DNA from: Escherichia phage EcS1
Length of the DNA stretch: 64,000 bases
Sequence record: NC_055721.1
Reading direction: 5' to 3' (one strand)
A model generated the notes under the pieces. It ran no database searches and was not told the origin of the DNA. It saw only the letters and a program-made list of their open reading frames with translations. Both the position numbers and the translations under genes were made by a program. Positions 30,963-44,101 of this stretch are shown one piece after another (the stretch's first letter is position 1; every line of letters begins with the position of its first letter).

Positions 30963-32135
30963 CTACTCTTGTTCGATTACAATTTCTTTCTTATATTCGT
31001 CTGGAACGAAGAACTTGTGATTCTTGTTAAAAGCTTCGTTAAGCTGTGGAATTAACTTATCTAGGTCTAAACCACCTGTGAACGCTTTCATCAGAATTGG
31101 GAACAGATAAGAACGGTCTGCATCTTTAAAGATTGTTTGAGCAGAGATAGCGAAGTCTTTACGGTCACGACCAGCTAGTTGCTTATAAGTTGTTTGAACT
31201 AAGTCTAATGCATGACGCAAGAACTCTAAATGAATAGTTTCAAACTTATCAATCTTAGTGATAGCCCATTCATCGCCTGCGAACATAGAACGAAGGTCAT
31301 CAGAACCACCAGACACGACAGATTCGAAGAGAGCTTCGTTTTTAGTGATGGAATCTTTAGTACGATGCAAAGCAACATACCAATCAGTTTTGAGCTTAAA
31401 GTTCAAACCGTTTTCCATTACAAAAACATAACCTTCTACACCTTCTTTGGCGCGAATGCCAGGCACAAATCGTTCATCGGCAGGAACATTAAATGCTTCT
31501 ACCAAATGAGGACGAAGCATTGCATCTTTAAACAATTCTTCATATGGAACATATTCACCAGTCTTATTTTCACGAACATTCAGAAGAATCAGGTCACGTT
31601 TACTATAAGCCAGAACGATACGGTTATCTGGTGCAACGTATTCCATGTTACAAGTGAAGCCATCTTTAGTAAGTTGAGTCACACGTTTCAAGAATTTTTC
31701 ATAACGTGGACCATTGATAACTTGTAGTGCTGCATAAGCTTGTTCAGAAGAAATAGAAGCCTTAGACTTCAAGAACAGTTGGTCGTTATCTACAAAGCTA
31801 GAGATTAGAGAACCATCAGCCTTATCCATCATCAATTTGATTTTAGTAAGGTCCAAGTTCATGGTAAATGGAGTTTCATCTAAGTTAAAGAATTTTTCCA
31901 TCGGACGAGCTGCAATACGAGTAGGCTTACCATCGACCATTTCAAACATAATGCCGCGGCACTCTAGAGCGTCAGGCAGAAGCCAATCAGAGTAAGATGC
32001 ATAGTTATAACTGAAGATACGATACTCACCACCAAACGGCGTCTGGTAGTCACGGAAATAGAATTTAGACTGGTCTTTTGGGTCAGTCAATTTCATCAGG
32101 TTTTTGTACAAATCATGTTCTTGTTTAGTAATCAT
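30963..32135 (-). CDS. rnlA: RNA ligase 1 (tRNA repair)
   Basis: Matches T4 gp63 as recalled: YRIFSYNYASYSDWLLPDALECRGIMFEM, RPMEKFFNL, adenylation motif KADGSL. Confidence 0.9.
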   Translation of the reverse strand: MITKQEHDLYKNLMKLTDPKDQSKFYFRDYQTPFGGEYRIFSYNYASYSDWLLPDALECRGIMFEMVDGKPTRIAARPMEKFFNLDETPFTMNLDLTKIKLMMDKADGSLISSFVDNDQLFLKSKASISSEQAYAALQVINGPRYEKFLKRVTQLTKDGFTCNMEYVAPDNRIVLAYSKRDLILLNVRENKTGEYVPYEELFKDAMLRPHLVEAFNVPADERFVPGIRAKEGVEGYVFVMENGLNFKLKTDWYVALHRTKDSITKNEALFESVVSGGSDDLRSMFAGDEWAITKIDKFETIHLEFLRHALDLVQTTYKQLAGRDRKDFAISAQTIFKDADRSYLFPILMKAFTGGLDLDKLIPQLNEAFNKNHKFFVPDEYKKEIVIEQE

Positions 32136-32545
32136 TTCTTAACCTTGTGCTGGACATTCCAGGGTGGATTGAATAGTTTAATGAACATCGGTTCTTCAAG
32201 GTCCATAGTGGCAACGGACATTGTGCCTAATTCGTTTGTCATGCTCAAATTAAAACATTGACGTGCGTAGAAGTCTACTTTCTTGTTATCCATCAAAGCT
32301 TCATGAATAAACACTGATTTAGTAGAATCACTAGTTGGATTGCTTCGATTTATAGCTGTACGATAATAATTGATTCGTTTACGTAAGTTTTTTGTCTTAC
32401 CAATATACACTAATTCATCATCTACAGCAATTGCATAGATTACGTTTGATTTATTTGGAACTGAAAGTAGTTCAATTTCTCCATTATTATTCATTTCGAG
32501 TGAAGCATATTTTATAAAAGAAAATTCATCTGCGAATGGTTTCAT
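32132..32545 (-). CDS. denA: Endonuclease II
   Basis: Near-colinear with T4 DenA as recalled (VIYAIA..DELVYIGKTKNLRKRINYYRTAINR, YARQCFNLSMTNELGT, FIKLFNPPWN). Confidence 0.85.
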   Translation of the reverse strand: MKPFADEFSFIKYASLEMNNNGEIELLSVPNKSNVIYAIAVDDELVYIGKTKNLRKRINYYRTAINRSNPTSDSTKSVFIHEALMDNKKVDFYARQCFNLSMTNELGTMSVATMDLEEPMFIKLFNPPWNVQHKVKK

Positions 32546-32554
32546 TACGATAAA

Positions 32555-32568
32555 GGGGCCGAAGCCCC
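32555..32568 (-). promoter_or_regulatory. Intercistronic UUCG-tetraloop hairpin (GGGGC-UUCG-GCCCC) between nrdB and denA
   Basis: Plus GGGGCCGAAGCCCC. Confidence 0.55.
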
Positions 32569-32573
32569 ATCCT

Positions 32574-33752
32574 TTAGAGATATTTACGGAAGTCGGTTAG
32601 AACGCTCTCGTCTACGTCGTTATCAATCTGTGCTACAAGATAAGAAGACAAATCGACTTCTTGTGGAGCAGACTGAACCATATCACTATTTAAGTATTCG
32701 CGAATCCAAGATAATGGATGACGTACAGGAGCATCCTTAATTGGACAAGGGAGTCCACAAGAATTCATACGTGATACTGTGAGGTAGTCAATAAAGTCGC
32801 TCAGGATTTTAACGTTTAACCCAGGCATACCACCATTACGGAACAAGTGGACGGCCCACTCTTTTTCCTGGCGGTTGACTTCCATGAAAATATCTACTGC
32901 TTCTTGTTCACACTCTTTAGCAATTTCTACCCATTCATCACCGTCAGTACCCATCTGCCATTGACGAATAATGAATTGGGTCCCTTTAAGGTGAAGCTGT
33001 TCATCACGGGCAATGAACTTCATAATCTTACTGTTGCCTTCCATGATTTCCATATTCTTATGGAAGTTGAAAGTACAAGCGAAAGATACATAAAAACGTA
33101 TTGCTTCAAGGGCATTGATAACATGCATGCACAAATAGAGCGCTTTCATCAAGTTGTGTTTAGCAATTTCTTCAGATTGTTCAGCAACACAGTATGAATC
33201 ATAATCGTTACCTTGGACTTTATACCACTTTGTTTCTTCTTTAGCATTTTCCCACAAGCGGGTTTTAGTCAGAACATCATCATAATAAACACCAATAGAT
33301 TCTGCACGTTTCATGATGGCTTCATCAAGAACGATTTCATCAAAAATCTTAGTTGGATCATTAAACAGGTTACGCATTATGTGTGTATATGAACGAGAGT
33401 GAATTGTTTCACTGAACGTCCAGGTCTGGTTCCAAGTATCAAGACTTGGGTCAGAAATCAGAGCAGATAATACTGCTGCTGGTGCACGACCTTGGATGGT
33501 ATCAAGCAATGATTGATACTTCAGGTTGTTGATGAATATTTCTTTTTGGTGTTCTGGGAGCTTTTCATATTGAGCACGGTCCATCATCAGGTTAACTTCT
33601 TCAGGCCGCCAAAAAAACGATAACTGCTTTTCAATTAGGTCTTCAAATGTTTTATGATGCTGGATGTCATAACGGGCAATACTTAGTCCTGAACCCAAGA
33701 ACATTGGTTCATTCAAGACATCTACTTGTTCTTTATTAAAAACTGTACTCAT
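32574..33752 (-). CDS. nrdB: Ribonucleotide reductase small subunit (class Ia), uninterrupted
   Basis: 392 aa (T4 NrdB 388); ferritin-like composition; adjacent to nrdA; no intron gap. Confidence 0.85.
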   Translation of the reverse strand: MSTVFNKEQVDVLNEPMFLGSGLSIARYDIQHHKTFEDLIEKQLSFFWRPEEVNLMMDRAQYEKLPEHQKEIFINNLKYQSLLDTIQGRAPAAVLSALISDPSLDTWNQTWTFSETIHSRSYTHIMRNLFNDPTKIFDEIVLDEAIMKRAESIGVYYDDVLTKTRLWENAKEETKWYKVQGNDYDSYCVAEQSEEIAKHNLMKALYLCMHVINALEAIRFYVSFACTFNFHKNMEIMEGNSKIMKFIARDEQLHLKGTQFIIRQWQMGTDGDEWVEIAKECEQEAVDIFMEVNRQEKEWAVHLFRNGGMPGLNVKILSDFIDYLTVSRMNSCGLPCPIKDAPVRHPLSWIREYLNSDMVQSAPQEVDLSSYLVAQIDNDVDESVLTDFRKYL

Positions 33753-33937
33753 AAGGTGTAAGTCCTGTTTAGCATTTCAGGTGTCATTATTTGGGCTTTG
33801 CGTTCTTGTTCCATCTTTTCAGACAATTTAGCAAACGAGCGTTTTAATCGTTTAGTATATTCAGCTTTAAATTCAGGGTCTTTTAAAAGAAGATGATATG
33901 CTTCAATATCATAGTCAATCATTTTTAACTTCCTCAT
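33749..33937 (-). CDS. Hypothetical small protein between nrdA and nrdB
   Basis: 62-aa ORF. Confidence 0.35.
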   Translation of the reverse strand: MRKLKMIDYDIEAYHLLLKDPEFKAEYTKRLKRSFAKLSEKMEQERKAQIMTPEMLNRTYTL

Positions 33938-34118
33938 ATCTGAAATCTACGCTAGTGTATTCTTTAGGTGCAAAGGCTGTACCAATCCTGATACCTTCTA
34001 GCATATTGTATAATGCAGAATGTTCGTTACGTTTGATTGGTACAGATTTTAATTTTGCTATGGTAAATAAACGCTCATTTTGTCGTGAAAATTTGATATA
34101 GATTTTGTATTCTTTCAT
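33915..34118 (-). CDS. Hypothetical small protein between nrdA and nrdB
   Basis: 67-aa ORF. Confidence 0.35.
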   Translation of the reverse strand: MKEYKIYIKFSRQNERLFTIAKLKSVPIKRNEHSALYNMLEGIRIGTAFAPKEYTSVDFRYEEVKND

Positions 34119-34156
34119 TTTGTTTTTCTCAGAAGGACATCCGTGTCCTCATTATA

Positions 34157-36418
34157 TCAAAGTTTACAAGAAGAGCAATCTTCTTCTTTTGGAACTTCGA
34201 TTTCATAATCATCAGTACCAGAACCATCACGAGTATTATGATAGTAAGCTGTCTTACCACCGAAGTACCACAGATGAAGCATATCATCCATCATGACTGA
34301 CATCGGAACCTTACCTTTAGGGTAGTTCTGTGGGTCATAGTACATGTTAGTAGAAATAGACTGACATACGAATTTCTGCATAATTGCTACTTGATTCAAG
34401 TAACCTTTATTACCAGATTTCGCTAACTTCCAAGCATAATCATAAAGATCAACATTAGTATCAACATTAGGCACAACTTGGTTAAAGGAACCTTCTTTCG
34501 ATTCTTTAACACTTACAGGCCCACGTGGCGGCTCGATACCATTAGTGCTATTTGATACCTGGCTCGAAGATTCACAAGGCATGAGCGCGGATAAGGTACT
34601 GTTACGGATACCGTAACTTCTGAGGTCTTCCCGCAACTGTTCCCAGTCACAAACGTACGATGGGGCTGCGAGTTGGTCAATCTTTTTATTGTACCAGTCG
34701 ATAGGTAACTCGCCTCTAGACCAACGAGTGTCTGAATAATACTCGCAATGGCCTTTTTCTTTCGCTAATTTGACTGATGCTCTGATGAGTGCATATTGAA
34801 GTCTTTCCATCATTTCGTGAGTTAAATCGTTTGCATCATTATATGATGCAAAGTTATCAGCTAACCAAGCAGCATAGTTCGTGATACCAACACCGAGTGC
34901 ACGACGTTTTTTAGCTTTCAAAGCTTCCGGGACAGGATAACCTTGATAGTCTAATAAATTATCTAAAGCACGAACTTGTACTTCGGCTAATTCGTTAATT
35001 TCGTCTTGGTTCTGCCAATCGAAGTTACCGAGTACATAAGCAGATAAAGTGCAAAGTGCGATTTCTGGGTCTTCACCACCAACGTCTTTAGTAGGAAGCG
35101 CGATTTCACAGCACAAGTTTGATTGCTTAACCGTAGCCACATCACGAATAAAAGGACCATACTCACCGACGTTATCTACAAAGTAAGGGTAAATACGAGC
35201 CGTACCTGAACGTTCAGTAAAGAACAATTCGAAGAGCTCGCGAGCTTTAATTCGTTTCTTACGAACCGTAGGATCTTTTTCTAAAGCTTCATAGAAATTA
35301 CGGAACTTCAGAGGGTCAGCAAAATACGCTTCGTAAAGTTCGCCTTTCATGATGTCAGGACTGAACAACGTGATGTAATCATTTTTAACCAAACGTTCAA
35401 ACATCAGGTCATTAATCTGAACACCATAGTCTAGATGACGAATACGGTTTTCATCTACACCTTTGTTGTTCTTCAGAACTAACAGGTTTTCCACTTCAAG
35501 ATGCCATATCGGATAATACAACGTTGCTGCACCACCACGTACGCCACCTTGTGAACAACTCTTCACTGCGGTTTGGAAATGTTTCCAGAATGGAATCACC
35601 CCAGTATGTTTGACTTCACCATGACCAATCTTAGAACCTTCAGCACGAATCATACCACCATTAATACCAATACCAGCACGTTTACTGATATAACGAATAA
35701 TAGCTTCTGCACCTTTGTTAATTGATGTCAGTGAATCACCACTTTCAATAACAACACAAGAACTAAACTGACGAGTTGGAGTACGAACACCTGCCATAAT
35801 AGGAGTAGGCAACGAAACCTTACGAGTTGAAACAGCATCATAAAAACGAACTACGTTCTTAATACGATGTTCACCATCATCTTGGTGCAAACACATACCG
35901 ATAAGCATGAATGCAAATTGAGGCGTTTCATAAATCTTGCCAGTTGAACGATCTTTGACTAGGTATTTTTCGATTAACTGCATCGTACCAGCATAAGTGA
36001 ATTCAAAGTCACGGTCGTGTTTGATTTGAGATTCAAACAACTGGATTTCTTCTGCAGACCATTTGCTTAGGATTTCGGTGTCATAAAGACCTGCGTTAAC
36101 TACTGAAGAGATGTGGTCGATAAACCGAGGTGGTTCGAATTGATTGAAAACATCTTTACGAAGACCAAACATAGCTAGATTACTTGCTACATATTGATAA
36201 TCTGGTTCGTCAACTGTAATACGGTTAGCAGCAACTTTAATAACTGCTTTATGAATTTCTTTAGTGGTCATTCCATCACGCAGATGACTTTTAACTTCTT
36301 CATAAAGGTCATAAGGGTTAACGGCTATAGATGTACTTGCGCACGACCATTCAAGGACTTGGATGATTTTACTTGGTGTAAAATCTTGACTAACGCCTGA
36401 ACTTTTTATTACTTGCAT
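34157..36418 (-). CDS. nrdA: Ribonucleotide reductase large subunit (class Ia)
   Basis: Start at MQVIKSSGVSQ (T4 NrdA starts MQLINVIKSSG); active-site NLCCEI; ~753 aa. Confidence 0.9.
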   Translation of the reverse strand: MQVIKSSGVSQDFTPSKIIQVLEWSCASTSIAVNPYDLYEEVKSHLRDGMTTKEIHKAVIKVAANRITVDEPDYQYVASNLAMFGLRKDVFNQFEPPRFIDHISSVVNAGLYDTEILSKWSAEEIQLFESQIKHDRDFEFTYAGTMQLIEKYLVKDRSTGKIYETPQFAFMLIGMCLHQDDGEHRIKNVVRFYDAVSTRKVSLPTPIMAGVRTPTRQFSSCVVIESGDSLTSINKGAEAIIRYISKRAGIGINGGMIRAEGSKIGHGEVKHTGVIPFWKHFQTAVKSCSQGGVRGGAATLYYPIWHLEVENLLVLKNNKGVDENRIRHLDYGVQINDLMFERLVKNDYITLFSPDIMKGELYEAYFADPLKFRNFYEALEKDPTVRKKRIKARELFELFFTERSGTARIYPYFVDNVGEYGPFIRDVATVKQSNLCCEIALPTKDVGGEDPEIALCTLSAYVLGNFDWQNQDEINELAEVQVRALDNLLDYQGYPVPEALKAKKRRALGVGITNYAAWLADNFASYNDANDLTHEMMERLQYALIRASVKLAKEKGHCEYYSDTRWSRGELPIDWYNKKIDQLAAPSYVCDWEQLREDLRSYGIRNSTLSALMPCESSSQVSNSTNGIEPPRGPVSVKESKEGSFNQVVPNVDTNVDLYDYAWKLAKSGNKGYLNQVAIMQKFVCQSISTNMYYDPQNYPKGKVPMSVMMDDMLHLWYFGGKTAYYHNTRDGSGTDDYEIEVPKEEDCSSCKL

Positions 36419-36437
36419 TTTTGTCCCATATTGTGAA

Positions 36438-36445
36438 TATAAATA
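36438..36445 (+). promoter_or_regulatory. Late promoter box TATAAATA upstream of GIY-YIG endonuclease gene
   Basis: Exact box 26 nt upstream of ATG 36471, followed by GAGGAG RBS. Confidence 0.5.
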
Positions 36446-36470
36446 CCAAAATATAGAGGAGTTACCCCAC

Positions 36471-37229
36471 ATGAAATCAGGCATTTATAGAATAATTAAC
36501 ATTAATAATAACAAATCTTACGTTGGCAGCACTATAGACTTCCAAGCAAGATGGAAACGACATTTTTCGGATTTGAAGAACGGGTGTCATTCTTCAATCA
36601 AACTCCAACGTTCATACGATAAACATGGTAAAGATTCATTCGTTTGTGAAATAGTTGAGCAGACTCCATATGATGAATCTATAATTTCATTAGAAGATTA
36701 TTATATCATCTATTTTGATTCAAAACAAAACGGATATAATATTGCTAACGCAGCATTTGGCGACACTTTATCGCACCACCCTAACAAAGAAGAAATATTT
36801 AAGAAAATAAGCATTTCTCTTAGAGAAAACAATGAAAAACTTTCTGAAGAAGAAAGGAAAAATAAATTTGGAAGTAAAAGTTGTAAGAAAGGTAAAAGCT
36901 ACGAAGAATTTTACGGAGCTAAAAAGGCTCAAGAAATAGGTCTTAAACTTTCAGAAAGCAATTATAATAGACAAATGTCTGGAACTAATAATCCATTCTT
37001 TGGTAAGACACATAGTGACGAAGTTAGAAAGAGAATTTCTGCCACACAGAAAGGACGTAAGAAACCTCATGTTAAATTAAGTATAGAAGGAACTATTTAT
37101 CAATCAGTGGCAGAAGCAATGAAAGCCACAAATCTTTCTCGTAAAGTTATAGAAAGACGTTGTGGCTCTGAATTATTCATAGATTGGTTTAGACTTCATA
37201 TAGCCATTTTACCTTTAATTGGAGGGTGA
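36471..37229 (+). CDS. Free-standing GIY-YIG homing endonuclease (I-TevI/Seg-like)
   Basis: N-terminal GIYRIININNNKSYVGST...RWKRH GIY-YIG module; repeated basic NUMOD-like linker (GKTHSDEVRKRIS); opposite strand to flanking td and nrdA; 3' end overlaps td 3' end. Confidence 0.85.
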   Translation: MKSGIYRIININNNKSYVGSTIDFQARWKRHFSDLKNGCHSSIKLQRSYDKHGKDSFVCEIVEQTPYDESIISLEDYYIIYFDSKQNGYNIANAAFGDTLSHHPNKEEIFKKISISLRENNEKLSEEERKNKFGSKSCKKGKSYEEFYGAKKAQEIGLKLSESNYNRQMSGTNNPFFGKTHSDEVRKRISATQKGRKKPHVKLSIEGTIYQSVAEAMKATNLSRKVIERRCGSELFIDWFRLHIAILPLIGG

Positions 37230-38059
37230 CTTTCATAATTTTTCAAAACAAAGTCTTCATGCATTGTCATTTCAGTTACCCAAGTCAATTGAGCATGAGT
37301 TGTAGACACGTCAAAGTTAGAAGGTAGACCTTTGATTTCTAACTGACACAGCTCTTTAGGTTCACGTCGTAGAATTTCTTTACACTGTTCTACATGGTTC
37401 AAATAGATGTGTGTATTGCCGCCTGAGAACACTAAGTCACCTGGAATAAGATTACACATCTTCGCTACGATATGCACAAGAGCGGCGTATGACGCAATAT
37501 TAAATGGCAATCCTAAGAACACGTCAACACTTCGTTGATACCATTGCAAGTCTAGGTGGCCTTCACGCACGTTGAACTGATAGAACATATGACAAGGTGG
37601 AAGAGCCATCTTATCAATTTCAGCTGGGTTCCATGCTGAAACAATTTGACGACGATCATTAGGCATAGCCTTGATACGCTCAATTGTTTTAATTACCTGG
37701 TCGACGCCACCGAAATCTCGCCATTGCTTCCCATAAACAGGACCAAGTTCGCCACCAGAATAGCCAAGGTCTTTTGCTTGGTTTTCATAGTTATCGTCCC
37801 AAATAGTGTTACCGTCAAGATAAGAACCATGTGTACGGAATCGAAGGTCATTGACATTTGTAGAACCAGACAAGAACCACAGAAGCTCAGAGATACAGGC
37901 TTTCCATGCTAATTTCTTAGTCGTTACAGCTGGAAAACCTTTAGTCAGGTCCCAGCGTAGTTTAGTACCGAACAATGCTATCGTACCAGTTCCAGTACGA
38001 TCATCAGTTTCATAACCATTAGTCAAAATGTGTTGAATCAGATGTTGATATTGCTTCAT
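37196..38059 (-). CDS. td: Thymidylate synthase, uninterrupted
   Basis: 287 aa (T4 Td 286); conserved active-site region LPPCHMFYQF; no intron. Confidence 0.9.
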   Translation of the reverse strand: MKQYQHLIQHILTNGYETDDRTGTGTIALFGTKLRWDLTKGFPAVTTKKLAWKACISELLWFLSGSTNVNDLRFRTHGSYLDGNTIWDDNYENQAKDLGYSGGELGPVYGKQWRDFGGVDQVIKTIERIKAMPNDRRQIVSAWNPAEIDKMALPPCHMFYQFNVREGHLDLQWYQRSVDVFLGLPFNIASYAALVHIVAKMCNLIPGDLVFSGGNTHIYLNHVEQCKEILRREPKELCQLEIKGLPSNFDVSTTHAQLTWVTEMTMHEDFVLKNYESHPPIKGKMAI

Positions 38060-38469
38060 TAATAATTCTCTTGTAAAGGATAAAAGAGGATTTCACGTCC
38101 ATTCTTTTCGAATCGACCAATCATGATAACAGAATCAGAAGTATACTCTATATTTCCTAAAGCAGAGGCCTTTACAAGTTGTCCGTAATGAGGACAAACT
38201 TTCATACGTCCTTGGTCGAATACACCTGGACCACCTGCATAACAATAGAAATAGTCAGAACCACCACGAATAGCTTCTACGGCTACTTCTATTTTGTAGA
38301 TTCCATGTTCAAAAATATCAGCGGCATATCGTTGTGGGTCTTTTTTATATTCAGCAATTGTTGGTGCTGAAATCAAAGGACATAATGGCCAGTTCTTTTG
38401 TTCTTCACGTTTAAGTAATGTTAGGAGCATAATGTTCTTCCAGTGGATTGATATAAACTTCTGAGCCAA
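38059..38469 (-). CDS. Hypothetical protein, tandem paralog of 38411-38758 (frd.x-like); start uncertain
   Basis: C-terminal 80 aa align with upstream paralog (HGIYKIEV...IGRFEKNGREILFYPLQENY vs HGIYRVEI...TGRFYKIGSEVYINPLEEHY). Confidence 0.45.
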   Translation of the reverse strand: MAQKFISIHWKNIMLLTLLKREEQKNWPLCPLISAPTIAEYKKDPQRYAADIFEHGIYKIEVAVEAIRGGSDYFYCYAGGPGVFDQGRMKVCPHYGQLVKASALGNIEYTSDSVIMIGRFEKNGREILFYPLQENY

Positions 38470-38758
38470 TTTTGTAGAATCGACCAGTGATAACCATCAC
38501 AGGACCATTCTCTGAATCATTATAAGTCACATTACCTGCAGCATGACCTAAGAACCATGTTTTAGTAGAAGTGCCGATATAAACAGGCTCATTGCCTTTA
38601 TTGTTATACATGCAGCAGTCTTTAGACCATTGGTACAATTCATTGACTGGAATTTCTACACGATAGATTCCATGCTCGTGACGCCAATTCTTCCAGACTT
38701 TTTGTTTCTTGTCTGCTTCAAGAAGAGTTAAGTTATACCCCAGTTTTGACATATACAT
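38411..38758 (-). CDS. Hypothetical protein, tandem paralog (frd.x-like)
   Basis: See above. Confidence 0.45.
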   Translation of the reverse strand: MYMSKLGYNLTLLEADKKQKVWKNWRHEHGIYRVEIPVNELYQWSKDCCMYNNKGNEPVYIGTSTKTWFLGHAAGNVTYNDSENGPVMVITGRFYKIGSEVYINPLEEHYAPNIT

Positions 38759-39341
38759 CCTCGCTGATATTTGTTACTGCATCAATATGATAATAGTGAG
38801 ATTCTTTAAACAAGAAACCAGAGTCTTCGCGCGCTGGAGCAACAATAAAGCTCATTGGCAATTGAGTGTCAGAGTTCACCCTGTGACGTTTACGGATAGA
38901 GGTTTGTATTACCTTATCTGAGAATGGATAAGCTTGCTGAAGTAGTCCTGCACCACCTATCACTGAATATACACCTTCTTCACGACTAAAGATAGCATTG
39001 AAATCAGCATTAGGGCTAGAAACTTGAAGTTCATGACCGTTCAGGAATTTATCGAATTGATAGTCACTTATATAAAAGTGAGCCAATGAGCCATCTTGAG
39101 TTGTAGGATAGTCACGAGACAAATCGCAAACAACTACATGAGGGCGTCCTACTAGTGGCTTAGGGAAACTAGAAAACGTCTTAGCTCCCATAATTAAAGT
39201 AGTGCCTTCAGTACGAGCTTTAAAGTTTTTAAGGTCTTGAGGAATATGGCCCCATGGTAACCCACCATTTATTCCAAATGCAAATTCATTTTCGCCTGAA
39301 ACAGTTTTAGTCCCAGCATAAGCATAAATTAATTGAATCAT
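38733..39341 (-). CDS. frd: Dihydrofolate reductase
   Basis: DHFR signature GINGGLPW; start at MIQLIYAYA; position upstream of td. Confidence 0.85.
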   Translation of the reverse strand: MIQLIYAYAGTKTVSGENEFAFGINGGLPWGHIPQDLKNFKARTEGTTLIMGAKTFSSFPKPLVGRPHVVVCDLSRDYPTTQDGSLAHFYISDYQFDKFLNGHELQVSSPNADFNAIFSREEGVYSVIGGAGLLQQAYPFSDKVIQTSIRKRHRVNSDTQLPMSFIVAPAREDSGFLFKESHYYHIDAVTNISEDVYVKTGV

Positions 39342-39574
39342 TGATTTTCCCACCATTCAATAGCTTTTTTAACATCACAAAAATAATCAGAATTAATGCA
39401 ACCACCGAATTCATCGTATAGGCACACTTCAATGAAACTAAGGCGTAAATGACAATCTGATTCATGCATAGCTTGTTCTGCATGCATCTCAAAAATAGAT
39501 AAATCTGATGATGTGAATGCACAATGGAGAAGATAATTATGGTCTTCGCCTTTGTATGAAATTGTTGTAATCAT
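39338..39574 (-). CDS. Hypothetical small protein
   Basis: 78-aa ORF. Confidence 0.35.
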   Translation of the reverse strand: MITTISYKGEDHNYLLHCAFTSSDLSIFEMHAEQAMHESDCHLRLSFIEVCLYDEFGGCINSDYFCDVKKAIEWWENQ

Positions 39575-39774
39575 CGACGTACCTCTTCAGCCATTTCTTC
39601 GAGAGCAGGGATTAGTTTGCGGGAGAATTCAATATTAGGGCCGCGGCCTATACGAGAAAAGAAGCCTGAAGTCATTTCTTTATGAGCCTGACGCATTGCA
39701 TCGCGTACCAATAAGACTCCTTCAGCACGAGCATCTTTAAGCAGTTTATCAAGTTCTTCTTTACTAATTTCCAT
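39571..39774 (-). CDS. Hypothetical small protein
   Basis: 67-aa ORF. Confidence 0.35.
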   Translation of the reverse strand: MEISKEELDKLLKDARAEGVLLVRDAMRQAHKEMTSGFFSRIGRGPNIEFSRKLIPALEEMAEEVRR

Positions 39775-39868
39775 AGCCTTGCCTCATTCCACATTGAATA
39801 CACTTGCCACCAGCGAACATAAGTCCACACCCACAATACTTACATTCCCAATCAGTCAGAATTCTCAT
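39764..39868 (-). CDS. Candidate zinc-ribbon mini-protein (34 aa; CxxC-x10-CxxC), not in ORF track
   Basis: Manually translated MRILTDWECKYCGCGLMFAGGKCIQCGMRQGYGN; ATGA overlap with upstream stop and 11-nt overlap with downstream start. Confidence 0.3.
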   Translation of the reverse strand: MRILTDWECKYCGCGLMFAGGKCIQCGMRQGYGN

Positions 39869-40143
39869 TTTGTTTTCTTAGCAATTTTCCAGGCAGCTTT
39901 GAAAGCTTCGACTTCTTCAATTTCAATCCAAAAACCAGAACCAAAGCCATCGTCATAACAAGGACAGCCGTCGCAATAGTCTTCCCAAGTAAGATCACGA
40001 CCGCCAAGAGAAGAACCAGTTTCCATTGCACGCAGACGAATTTCAGCAGCTTCAATAGCTTCAGGGTCGTTACCTTCAATAGTGAAGTACCATTTTCCAC
40101 GATATTCATTACCTAAGTTGATTGAGTTACGTTTAAGTTTCAT
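39865..40143 (-). CDS. Hypothetical small protein
   Basis: Start at ATG 40143 with GGAG RBS downstream of promoter 40170-40198. Confidence 0.4.
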   Translation of the reverse strand: MKLKRNSINLGNEYRGKWYFTIEGNDPEAIEAAEIRLRAMETGSSLGGRDLTWEDYCDGCPCYDDGFGSGFWIEIEEVEAFKAAWKIAKKTK

Positions 40144-44093: not shown

Positions 44094-44101
44094 TATAAAT
44101 A
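44094..44101 (+). promoter_or_regulatory. Late promoter box TATAAATA for gene 34
   Basis: Exact box ~32 nt upstream of ATG 44133. Confidence 0.55.

Follow-up and report, generated by a model that had tools for sequence, protein, structure and literature searches.

How did a gene come to lie, on the opposite strand, between the thymidylate synthase gene td and the ribonucleotide reductase gene nrdA of Escherichia phage EcS1, and what does it do there? The question arises from a stretch of 64,000 nucleotides of this phage (sequence record NC_055721.1, hereafter the window), in which an open reading frame (ORF) of the + strand is found between two genes of the - strand. The answer favored here, with a probability of roughly 0.75, is that the ORF is an intact, free-standing homing endonuclease gene (HEG) of the I-TevI lineage, carried by a mobile cassette that occupies the slot of a DUF4326 gene and homes into alleles from which the endonuclease is absent (HEG-minus).

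The main evidence comes from the same junction in related phages. The window is T4-like, and its backbone is about 80% identical to that of Winklervirus (Serratia phages CHI14 and X20; Erwinia phages Virsaitis27, Gravdalen, and Vettismorki). Antisense orthologues of the ORF, all by the nrdA start, are found in Gravdalen (97% amino acid identity), Yersinia phage phiR1-RT (65%), about 18 Klebsiella phages of the genus Jiaodavirus (~56%), several Escherichia and Shigella Tequatrovirus phages, for example, Ozark and sutha (57%), and Acinetobacter phages such as AbTZA1 (51%). Comparison of the td-nrdA junction in relatives without the endonuclease, proposed in the first-pass annotation of the window, identifies the alternative occupant of the slot: in all five genera, close HEG-minus relatives have a gene of 79-109 codons assigned to DUF4326 by Pfam, which lies on the td/nrdA strand, overlaps the nrdA start by 4-10 nt, and is named nrdA.1 in some records. 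The carriers (HEG-plus) and their HEG-minus counterparts are, in Winklervirus, the window and Gravdalen versus CHI14, Virsaitis27, Kc304, LC53, Vettismorki, and X20; in Jiaodavirus, KP179-type versus JD18-type phages, with 18 of the 154 records (~12%) being HEG-plus; in Tequatrovirus, Ozark and sutha versus ECML-134; and, further, phiR1-RT versus TG1 and AbTZA1 versus Bhz15.

The breakpoints vary by genus, and DUF4326 is lost every time. In Winklervirus, one falls within DUF4326, after two codons, and the other at the ribosome-binding site (RBS) of nrdA; in Tequatrovirus, they fall after three codons of DUF4326 and 8 nt short of nrdA; in Jiaodavirus, one lies 7 nt before the td stop codon, with a 68-amino-acid ORF removed too, and in Hadassahvirus exactly DUF4326 is exchanged. 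In the window, homology with HEG-minus relatives ends immediately past the nrdA ATG, and in the adjoining sequence (reverse complement ..TATGGGACAAAA|ATG) the 3' end of DUF4326 survives as a decayed remnant that provides nrdA with its Shine-Dalgarno sequence. The cassette is a substitution for DUF4326 and not a plain insertion. Of the earlier description, an endonuclease inserted between td and nrdA, the location stands; the plain insertion gives way to the replacement of a gene in five genera.

Identity values add the second line of evidence. The cassettes of the window and of Gravdalen share 96.8% identity (753/778), as against 88.8% for nrdA, 80.3% for td, and ~80% for the backbone; the 300 nt on either side of the cassette are 85% and 78% identical. 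The flanks of Gravdalen are themselves 99-100% identical to those of HEG-minus CHI14 up to the junctions. Across genera, the endonuclease genes of Ozark (Tequatrovirus) and KP179 (Jiaodavirus) are 92.3% identical, and their nrdA and td 71%. Because the jump in identity is confined to the cassette, and because the cassette is present or absent among collinear relatives, these alignments indicate that it has moved between phages, across lineages and genera, independently of its flanks. The candidate mobile element of the first-pass annotation is borne out on both counts.

Variation is also seen among the carriers. In Gravdalen, the endonuclease gene is split into two annotated ORFs by a deletion (AAAAAGG to AAAAAG; L001 3922-3970, equivalent to 36926 in the window, where the copy is intact), which may reflect recent decay or an error in sequencing. 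In KP179 (L006 2700-2945), about 245 additional bp, with a possible small - strand ORF by eye, separate the nrdA start from the endonuclease promoter; other HEG-plus phages of this genus, among them KpV477, Roth16, and Merci, lack this stretch. The nrdA start codon at the cassette junction is apparently GTG in AbTZA1 (L008 ~2918-2920) and ATG in Bhz15 (L112 ~1417-1419). For the Acinetobacter phages BRC001 and PhT2-v2, the records list two or three homing endonuclease genes here.

What the cassette encodes is clear from the protein. I-TevI, the textbook example of a GIY-YIG homing endonuclease and also a scaffold for genome editing, lies within the td intron of phage T4 in the sense orientation, as stated in the first-pass annotation and as found in the T4 record M12742. 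The cassette of the window comprises the following features.

36419-36470, + strand: 5' end of the cassette, the 52-bp gap from the nrdA start codon to the endonuclease ATG, which holds a promoter box and an RBS.
36438-36445, + strand: putative -10 box of a gp55/gp33-dependent late promoter of the T4 type, TATAAATA, 25 nt upstream of the endonuclease ATG (36471).
36456-36461, + strand: Shine-Dalgarno sequence GAGGAG, read from the sequence, 9 nt before the endonuclease ATG.
36471-37229, + strand: endonuclease ORF of 252 amino acids, beginning MKSGIYRI...YVGS, a full-length homologue of I-TevI.
36471-36761, + strand: GIY-YIG catalytic domain, residues 1-97 (PDB 1mk0/1ln0, E 5e-32; invariant columns in the alignment).
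36762-36977, + strand: linker, residues 98-169, aligned without the four-cysteine zinc finger of I-TevI.
36978-37040, + strand: NUMOD3 motif, residues 170-190, the minor-groove-binding helix of I-TevI-type enzymes (Pfam PF07460, E 1.6e-7; aligned to 1i3j).
37068-37196, + strand: C-terminal helix-turn-helix DNA-binding domain, residues 200-242 (Pfam PF20987, E 4e-5; PDB 1i3j, E 5.7e-8).
37197-37229, + strand: ten-codon read-through extension HIAILPLIGG with the stop codon, antisense to the last td codons and absent from all homologues.

Identity to I-TevI is 44% from end to end (tblastn). The profile search that the first-pass annotation had suggested returns all three modules, namely GIY-YIG (Pfam PF01541, E 2e-15), NUMOD3, and I-TevI_DNA-bd, the last with 23.8 bits, below the Pfam cutoff of 27 bits; the match to 1i3j, the DNA-binding domain of I-TevI, spans residues 157-242, and a match to SegE_GIY-YIG is weak (E 2e-3). 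Every catalytic residue aligns, and Y6, Y17, R27, H31, H40, E75, and N90 (I-TevI numbering) are invariant in a six-sequence alignment. The four-cysteine zinc finger is absent from the endonuclease and from its whole clade (alignment and regular-expression scan), and is detected by the same kind of scan in the intron clade. A chance ORF is rejected, given hundreds of homologues and a ratio of non-synonymous to synonymous substitution rates (dN/dS) of 0.056 against the nearest relative, Gravdalen, and of 0.12 between Ozark and KP179; in these two independent comparisons, the gene is under strong purifying selection. On such matches, the ORF is assigned to the GIY-YIG/NUMOD3/helix-turn-helix homing endonucleases of the I-TevI subfamily. 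It is classified as a free-standing member of the I-TevI family, and not as I-TevI itself, because intron residence and the zinc finger are both missing. GenBank records already label homologues as 'homing endonuclease' or 'I-TevI homing endonuclease'; a search of the available literature found no paper describing a free-standing I-TevI homologue at td/nrdA, which is absence of evidence only.

The genes around the cassette, all on the - strand, frame the remaining questions of layout.

32574-33752, - strand: nrdB, continuous.
34157-36418, - strand: nrdA, ribonucleotide reductase large subunit, whose start codon is the left boundary of the cassette.
37196-38059, - strand: td, thymidylate synthase, 287 amino acids, intronless, whose stop codon is the right boundary of the cassette.
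38733-39356, - strand: frd, continuous.

The endonuclease is thus placed between td and nrdA on the opposite strand, as first described, with its promoter box and RBS in the gap before the nrdA start. The earlier statement that td and nrdB are intronless also holds: td, nrdA, and nrdB are each uninterrupted, td covers the whole Pfam thymidylate synthase model (1-266/266), and an Rfam scan of 32000-40000 returns no group I intron or other family, even at E<=1. An intron-encoded gene is rejected on this basis; among the relatives, the orthologues (51-97% identity) are never intronic, only the 44% identical paralogue I-TevI being so. The start of nrdA is set at 36418 (MQVIKSSG) from its homologues, and the 22-codon upstream extension of the mechanical ORF, which reaches an ATG at 36484 across the endonuclease start, is spurious.

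At the other end, the reported overlap of about 34 nt with the td 3' end is present (37196-37229). In Gravdalen, phiR1-RT, and the Klebsiella phages, the overlap of the two stop codons is just 4 nt (TTAA or CTAA). In the window, as in HEG-minus relatives, the td stop codon is TGA (TCA on the + strand), so that the endonuclease has lost its stop codon and its frame continues for 10 codons to the next TGA. Since other carriers overlap by 4 nt, the 34-nt overlap is an accident of the junction, peculiar to this genome, and not a conserved regulatory device.

Two neighboring regions of the cluster deserve mention. Between frd and td lie two tandem, overlapping, paralogous ORFs (38059-38469 and 38411-38758, both - strand; 136 and 115 amino acids), which both belong to phrog_1928 (unknown function), share 27% identity (E 2e-8), and are conserved in Winklervirus relatives. 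Between nrdB and nrdA, the segment ~33810-34118 is missing from Gravdalen, CHI14, Virsaitis27, and Vettismorki; it contains a 67-amino-acid ORF (33915-34118, - strand) matching phrog_20564 (unknown function), and forms a second variable slot of the nrd cluster, where T4 has mobE.

The expression of the endonuclease can be approached through its promoter box. TATAAATA is found upstream of all orthologues, in Winklervirus, Tegunavirus, Jiaodavirus, Tequatrovirus, and Hadassahvirus, with 21-28 nt between box and ATG. The window holds 10 copies, every one outside real ORFs; those at 44094, 49096, and 8730/8734 precede the long-tail-fiber proximal subunit, the tail-fiber hinge, and two baseplate-hub genes, at 1-31 nt upstream. 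Because the count in the window is not significant by itself (10 versus 5.9 expected), the argument relies on the placement and conservation of the box. As it is conserved in the orthologues and placed before late structural genes, late, promoter-specific transcription of the endonuclease is a sound inference, in line with the late promoter proposed in the first-pass annotation. I-TevI restricts its expression likewise, through a late promoter and RBS sequestration (PMC2988022).

Transcripts of the two strands probably meet at this locus. No terminator-like site is found on either strand between 36000 and 38300, so that sense and antisense RNAs from the cassette and td would overlap. For nrdA, a strict match to a MotA box with its -10 element is not found on the - strand inside the cassette, and the two weak sigma-70-like sites there are fewer than in shuffled sequences. 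About 80 nt before the td start, a strict match of this type (TGCTTTAGGAAATATAGAGTATACT, 38140-38164, - strand) could be a middle promoter serving td directly and nrdA via read-through. In the case of I-TevI, autorepression of the late promoter works through a site similar to the homing site. A search for such an operator compared ungapped 20-mers of the 52-nt promoter region (also those of phiR1-RT, Ozark, and AbTZA1) with td, nrdA, and the HEG-minus cassette, and found nothing above shuffles, the T4 positive control being likewise missed; gapped local alignment found nothing besides the retained remnant of the nrdA RBS, ATAAGTCCTCTAAT.

Taken as intronless homing, the element would work as follows. 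A compact cassette of ~0.78 kb, made of a late promoter, an RBS, and the ORF, encodes a GIY-YIG nuclease joined by a flexible linker without zinc finger to a NUMOD3 helix and a helix-turn-helix. It would be transcribed late only, from its own gp55-type promoter; read-through from the early/middle td-nrdA operon would not express it, since the gene is antisense to that operon. In a mixed infection, the endonuclease would cut the allele of the HEG-minus phage; its recombinational repair, templated by the HEG-plus genome, would put the cassette in place of DUF4326. HEG-plus genomes would be immune because the target is missing from them.

The position of this target is where the population data are most informative. 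Between four HEG-plus and four HEG-minus Jiaodavirus phages, fixed differences in td are confined to its last 7 nt, and none are found in 1200 nt of nrdA; the td 3' haplotypes of the HEG-plus phages, two or more in number, differ strongly from one another, and each also occurs in HEG-minus phages. The td of Gravdalen equals that of HEG-minus CHI14 and Kc304, save for four private changes within the last 44 nt. Natural haplotypes, therefore, contain no co-conversion past ~7-44 nt of td. As the haplotypes of td and nrdA vary independently of the cassette, and as DUF4326 is lost recurrently, the most economical target lies in or at the edge of the replaced segment: a cut inside DUF4326, or at the td-stop or nrdA-start junction, and not at the I-TevI site ~310 nt inside td, is given slightly less than an even chance. 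Within DUF4326, a block CATGG(T/C)GATATAATAGC is unchanged at six synonymous sites in 5-6 phage lineages (CHI14, L004:3470-3490; also L107, L010, L111, L112 (Bhz15), and L027). This invariant block (CATGGTGATATAATAGC) could be where the endonuclease recognizes its target. The block also has the form of an extended -10 element (TGnTATAAT), ~60-65 nt ahead of the nrdA ATG, and possibly is an nrdA promoter embedded in DUF4326, one that would be missing from HEG-plus genomes, the window included. The T4 I-TevI homing site has no similarity to DUF4326 (p 0.4-0.65 against shuffles).

The most serious competitor of this view keeps the element and moves its target into td itself, at or near the I-TevI/I-BmoI site (the active-site region, about td nt 549, window ~37510), with homing that obligatorily co-converts the td 3' end, in the way SegG and SegF home from distant sites. 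The linkage of the family speaks for it. Among relatives of at least 35% identity and near full length, recovered from IMG/VR, 15 of the 16 other loci adjoin td: four are intronic within td (codon 183/184 or 176), six follow the td stop codon closely on the td strand, four are tail-to-tail with td, and one is head-to-head with it; weaker relatives are td-linked in 1 of ~60. I-TevI, the nearest characterized relative, cuts td, I-BmoI cuts the homologous site in thyA (PMC12774661), and SegG co-converts from a distant site (according to a reference in PMC2993671). Nevertheless, the haplotypes described above match those of HEG-minus phages in Jiaodavirus until 7 nt from the td stop codon, and in Gravdalen over a td 3' half that is 99-100% identical to CHI14. 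An I-TevI-like specificity would, moreover, cut the window's own td, which keeps CAACG at the T4 spacing and 17/17 nt (TTTAATATTGCGTCATA) of the binding region of the T4 homing site. Escherichia phage sutha (PV245934; L113 3501-5686) has I-TevI in its td intron as well as the free-standing antisense paralogue; the two genes converge at a distance of 0.7 kb, with DUF5496 in the interval, and their presence in one genome suggests non-redundant targets. The zinc finger, a distance determinant, is absent. Immunizing substitutions at the td intron-insertion site were considered as well (CGA AGT in the window, CG(C/T) TCA in HEG-minus phages) and rejected, their density being that of background divergence and Gravdalen being identical to CHI14 there. 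On balance, a target deep in td is unlikely.

Two further alternatives deny that homing is what maintains the gene, or that it matters most. The endonuclease might no longer home, being a decaying passenger or having been co-opted as a late transcriptional repressor or a competitor-excluding nuclease. The frameshift in Gravdalen, the lost stop codon and 10 additional residues of the window copy, the documented autorepression by I-TevI (PMC2988022), and the presence of the gene in only ~12% of Jiaodavirus records all agree with this. It is, however, quite improbable in view of the strong purifying selection, the intact catalytic residues, the recent transfer across lineages and genera limited to the cassette, and the presence/absence polymorphism recurring in five genera. 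Alternatively, antisense RNA could be the key function, in line with the mutual antisense regulation suggested in the first-pass annotation, for which the geometry leaves room, with late transcription of the cassette shutting down td/nrdA mRNA and early read-through from td to nrdA silencing the endonuclease. The cassette is indeed convergent with td and inside the td-nrdA transcription path, both senses should overlap for want of a terminator, and oppositely oriented HEG promoters could yield antisense transcripts, according to a review (PMC2988022). This arrangement is, nevertheless, too variable to make the idea anything but very improbable: the 34-nt coding overlap is not conserved, another ORF separates the endonuclease from td in Ozark/sutha and AbTZA1, the endonuclease of L029 lies between td and frd, and related family members share the td strand, so that no conserved antisense target is evident. 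The early/middle versus late timing already accounts for the logic of expression.

A mobile homing cassette in the DUF4326 slot remains the preferred reading, and several observations weigh against it. Both genes, the endonuclease and DUF4326, are present in two distant relatives (L029 and L033; 40% identity), and the family, in the survey above, is linked to td and not to DUF4326. Gravdalen, the only other Winklervirus copy, is split by one deleted nucleotide, which points to decay unless it is a sequencing error, and the unusual 10-residue C-terminal extension of the window copy sits on its DNA-binding domain. The sharp boundaries could come from later recombination with HEG-minus phages, which would homogenize the flanks up to the edge of heterology and erase co-conversion tracts. 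No operator-like similarity between the promoter region and candidate targets was found in a search that also missed the T4 control, and a literature search found no cleavage, expression, or homing data for the endonuclease or any orthologue.

Comparison with known systems places the element within a familiar range. It resembles I-TevI (PDB 1mk0/1ln0, 1i3j) in size (252 versus 245 amino acids), in identity throughout, in the order of its domains, from GIY-YIG and linker to NUMOD3 helix and helix-turn-helix, in its catalytic residues, in its late-type promoter, and in its physical linkage to td. Unlike I-TevI, it is not intronic, is carried on the strand opposite to td in the DUF4326 slot by nrdA, and has a linker without zinc finger and a weakly similar DNA-binding domain; free-standing paralogues can share a genome with I-TevI, and the population data oppose a common cleavage site. 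With the T4 Seg and Mob endonucleases (SegA-G and MobA-E, of which SegF, SegG, SegE, and MobE perform intronless homing), it shares a place among nucleotide-metabolism genes (for Seg, as a GIY-YIG gene), a patchy distribution among close relatives, and the expectation that it spreads when double-strand breaks are repaired in mixed infections (PMC2988022). This review covers 15 endonucleases of T4 and describes only segD as antisense, without a promoter. The window endonuclease differs in being much nearer to I-TevI in sequence, in having its own late promoter antisense to its neighbors, and in replacing a gene, as opposed to being located in an intergenic gap. Sandegren, Nord, and Sjoberg (2005) are said to have described SegH/Hef in place of mobC/mobE in some T-even phages. 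That case is similar in offering alternative cassettes for one slot of collinear genomes, but the displaced genes there are endonucleases, and the one displaced here is the conserved non-endonuclease DUF4326.

The 'collaborative homing' of F-CphI, beside psbA, offers another parallel. Mapping placed its target at the intron-insertion site (Zeng, Bonocora, and Shub 2009, as discussed in PMC3984707), and a free-standing endonuclease beside an intron-bearing gene is a configuration proposed as the precursor of mobile introns. In both cases, a free-standing endonuclease lies beside a gene that has a group I intron and a related endonuclease in other phages; F-CphI belongs to a different nuclease family, and the haplotype data here argue against the intron-insertion site. 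From these parallels, a broader and tentative history can be drawn, against which the odds stand fairly clearly: the antisense td/nrdA endonucleases would be a sister lineage of I-TevI that kept the ancestral place by td and switched its target to DUF4326 ('nrdA.1'), with homing destroying DUF4326 and the possible embedded nrdA promoter, and the td-linked sense, antisense, and intron-borne members would preserve stages toward I-TevI. A neighbor-joining tree does not resolve whether the intron clade nests within the free-standing clades, deep nodes having 21-54% bootstrap support.

The element is of a well-known kind; the new points are the substitution of DUF4326, the mobility across genera, and the series of td-linked configurations bearing on the origin of the td intron. 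Along with DUF4326, HEG-plus phages have lost the translational coupling of this gene to nrdA, and the replacement explains one hyperplastic spot in the T4-like core genome. The orthologues of the cassette are natural variants that combine the same nuclease domain with a zinc-finger-less linker and a diverged DNA-binding domain. Because closely related HEG-plus/HEG-minus pairs exist, such as AbTZA1/Bhz15 (99.6% identical flanks), Gravdalen/CHI14, and KP179/KpnM6E1, their target could be found quickly. The td-linked configurations, within the intron, in the sense orientation, or antisense past the td stop codon, bear on how endonuclease genes entered group I introns.

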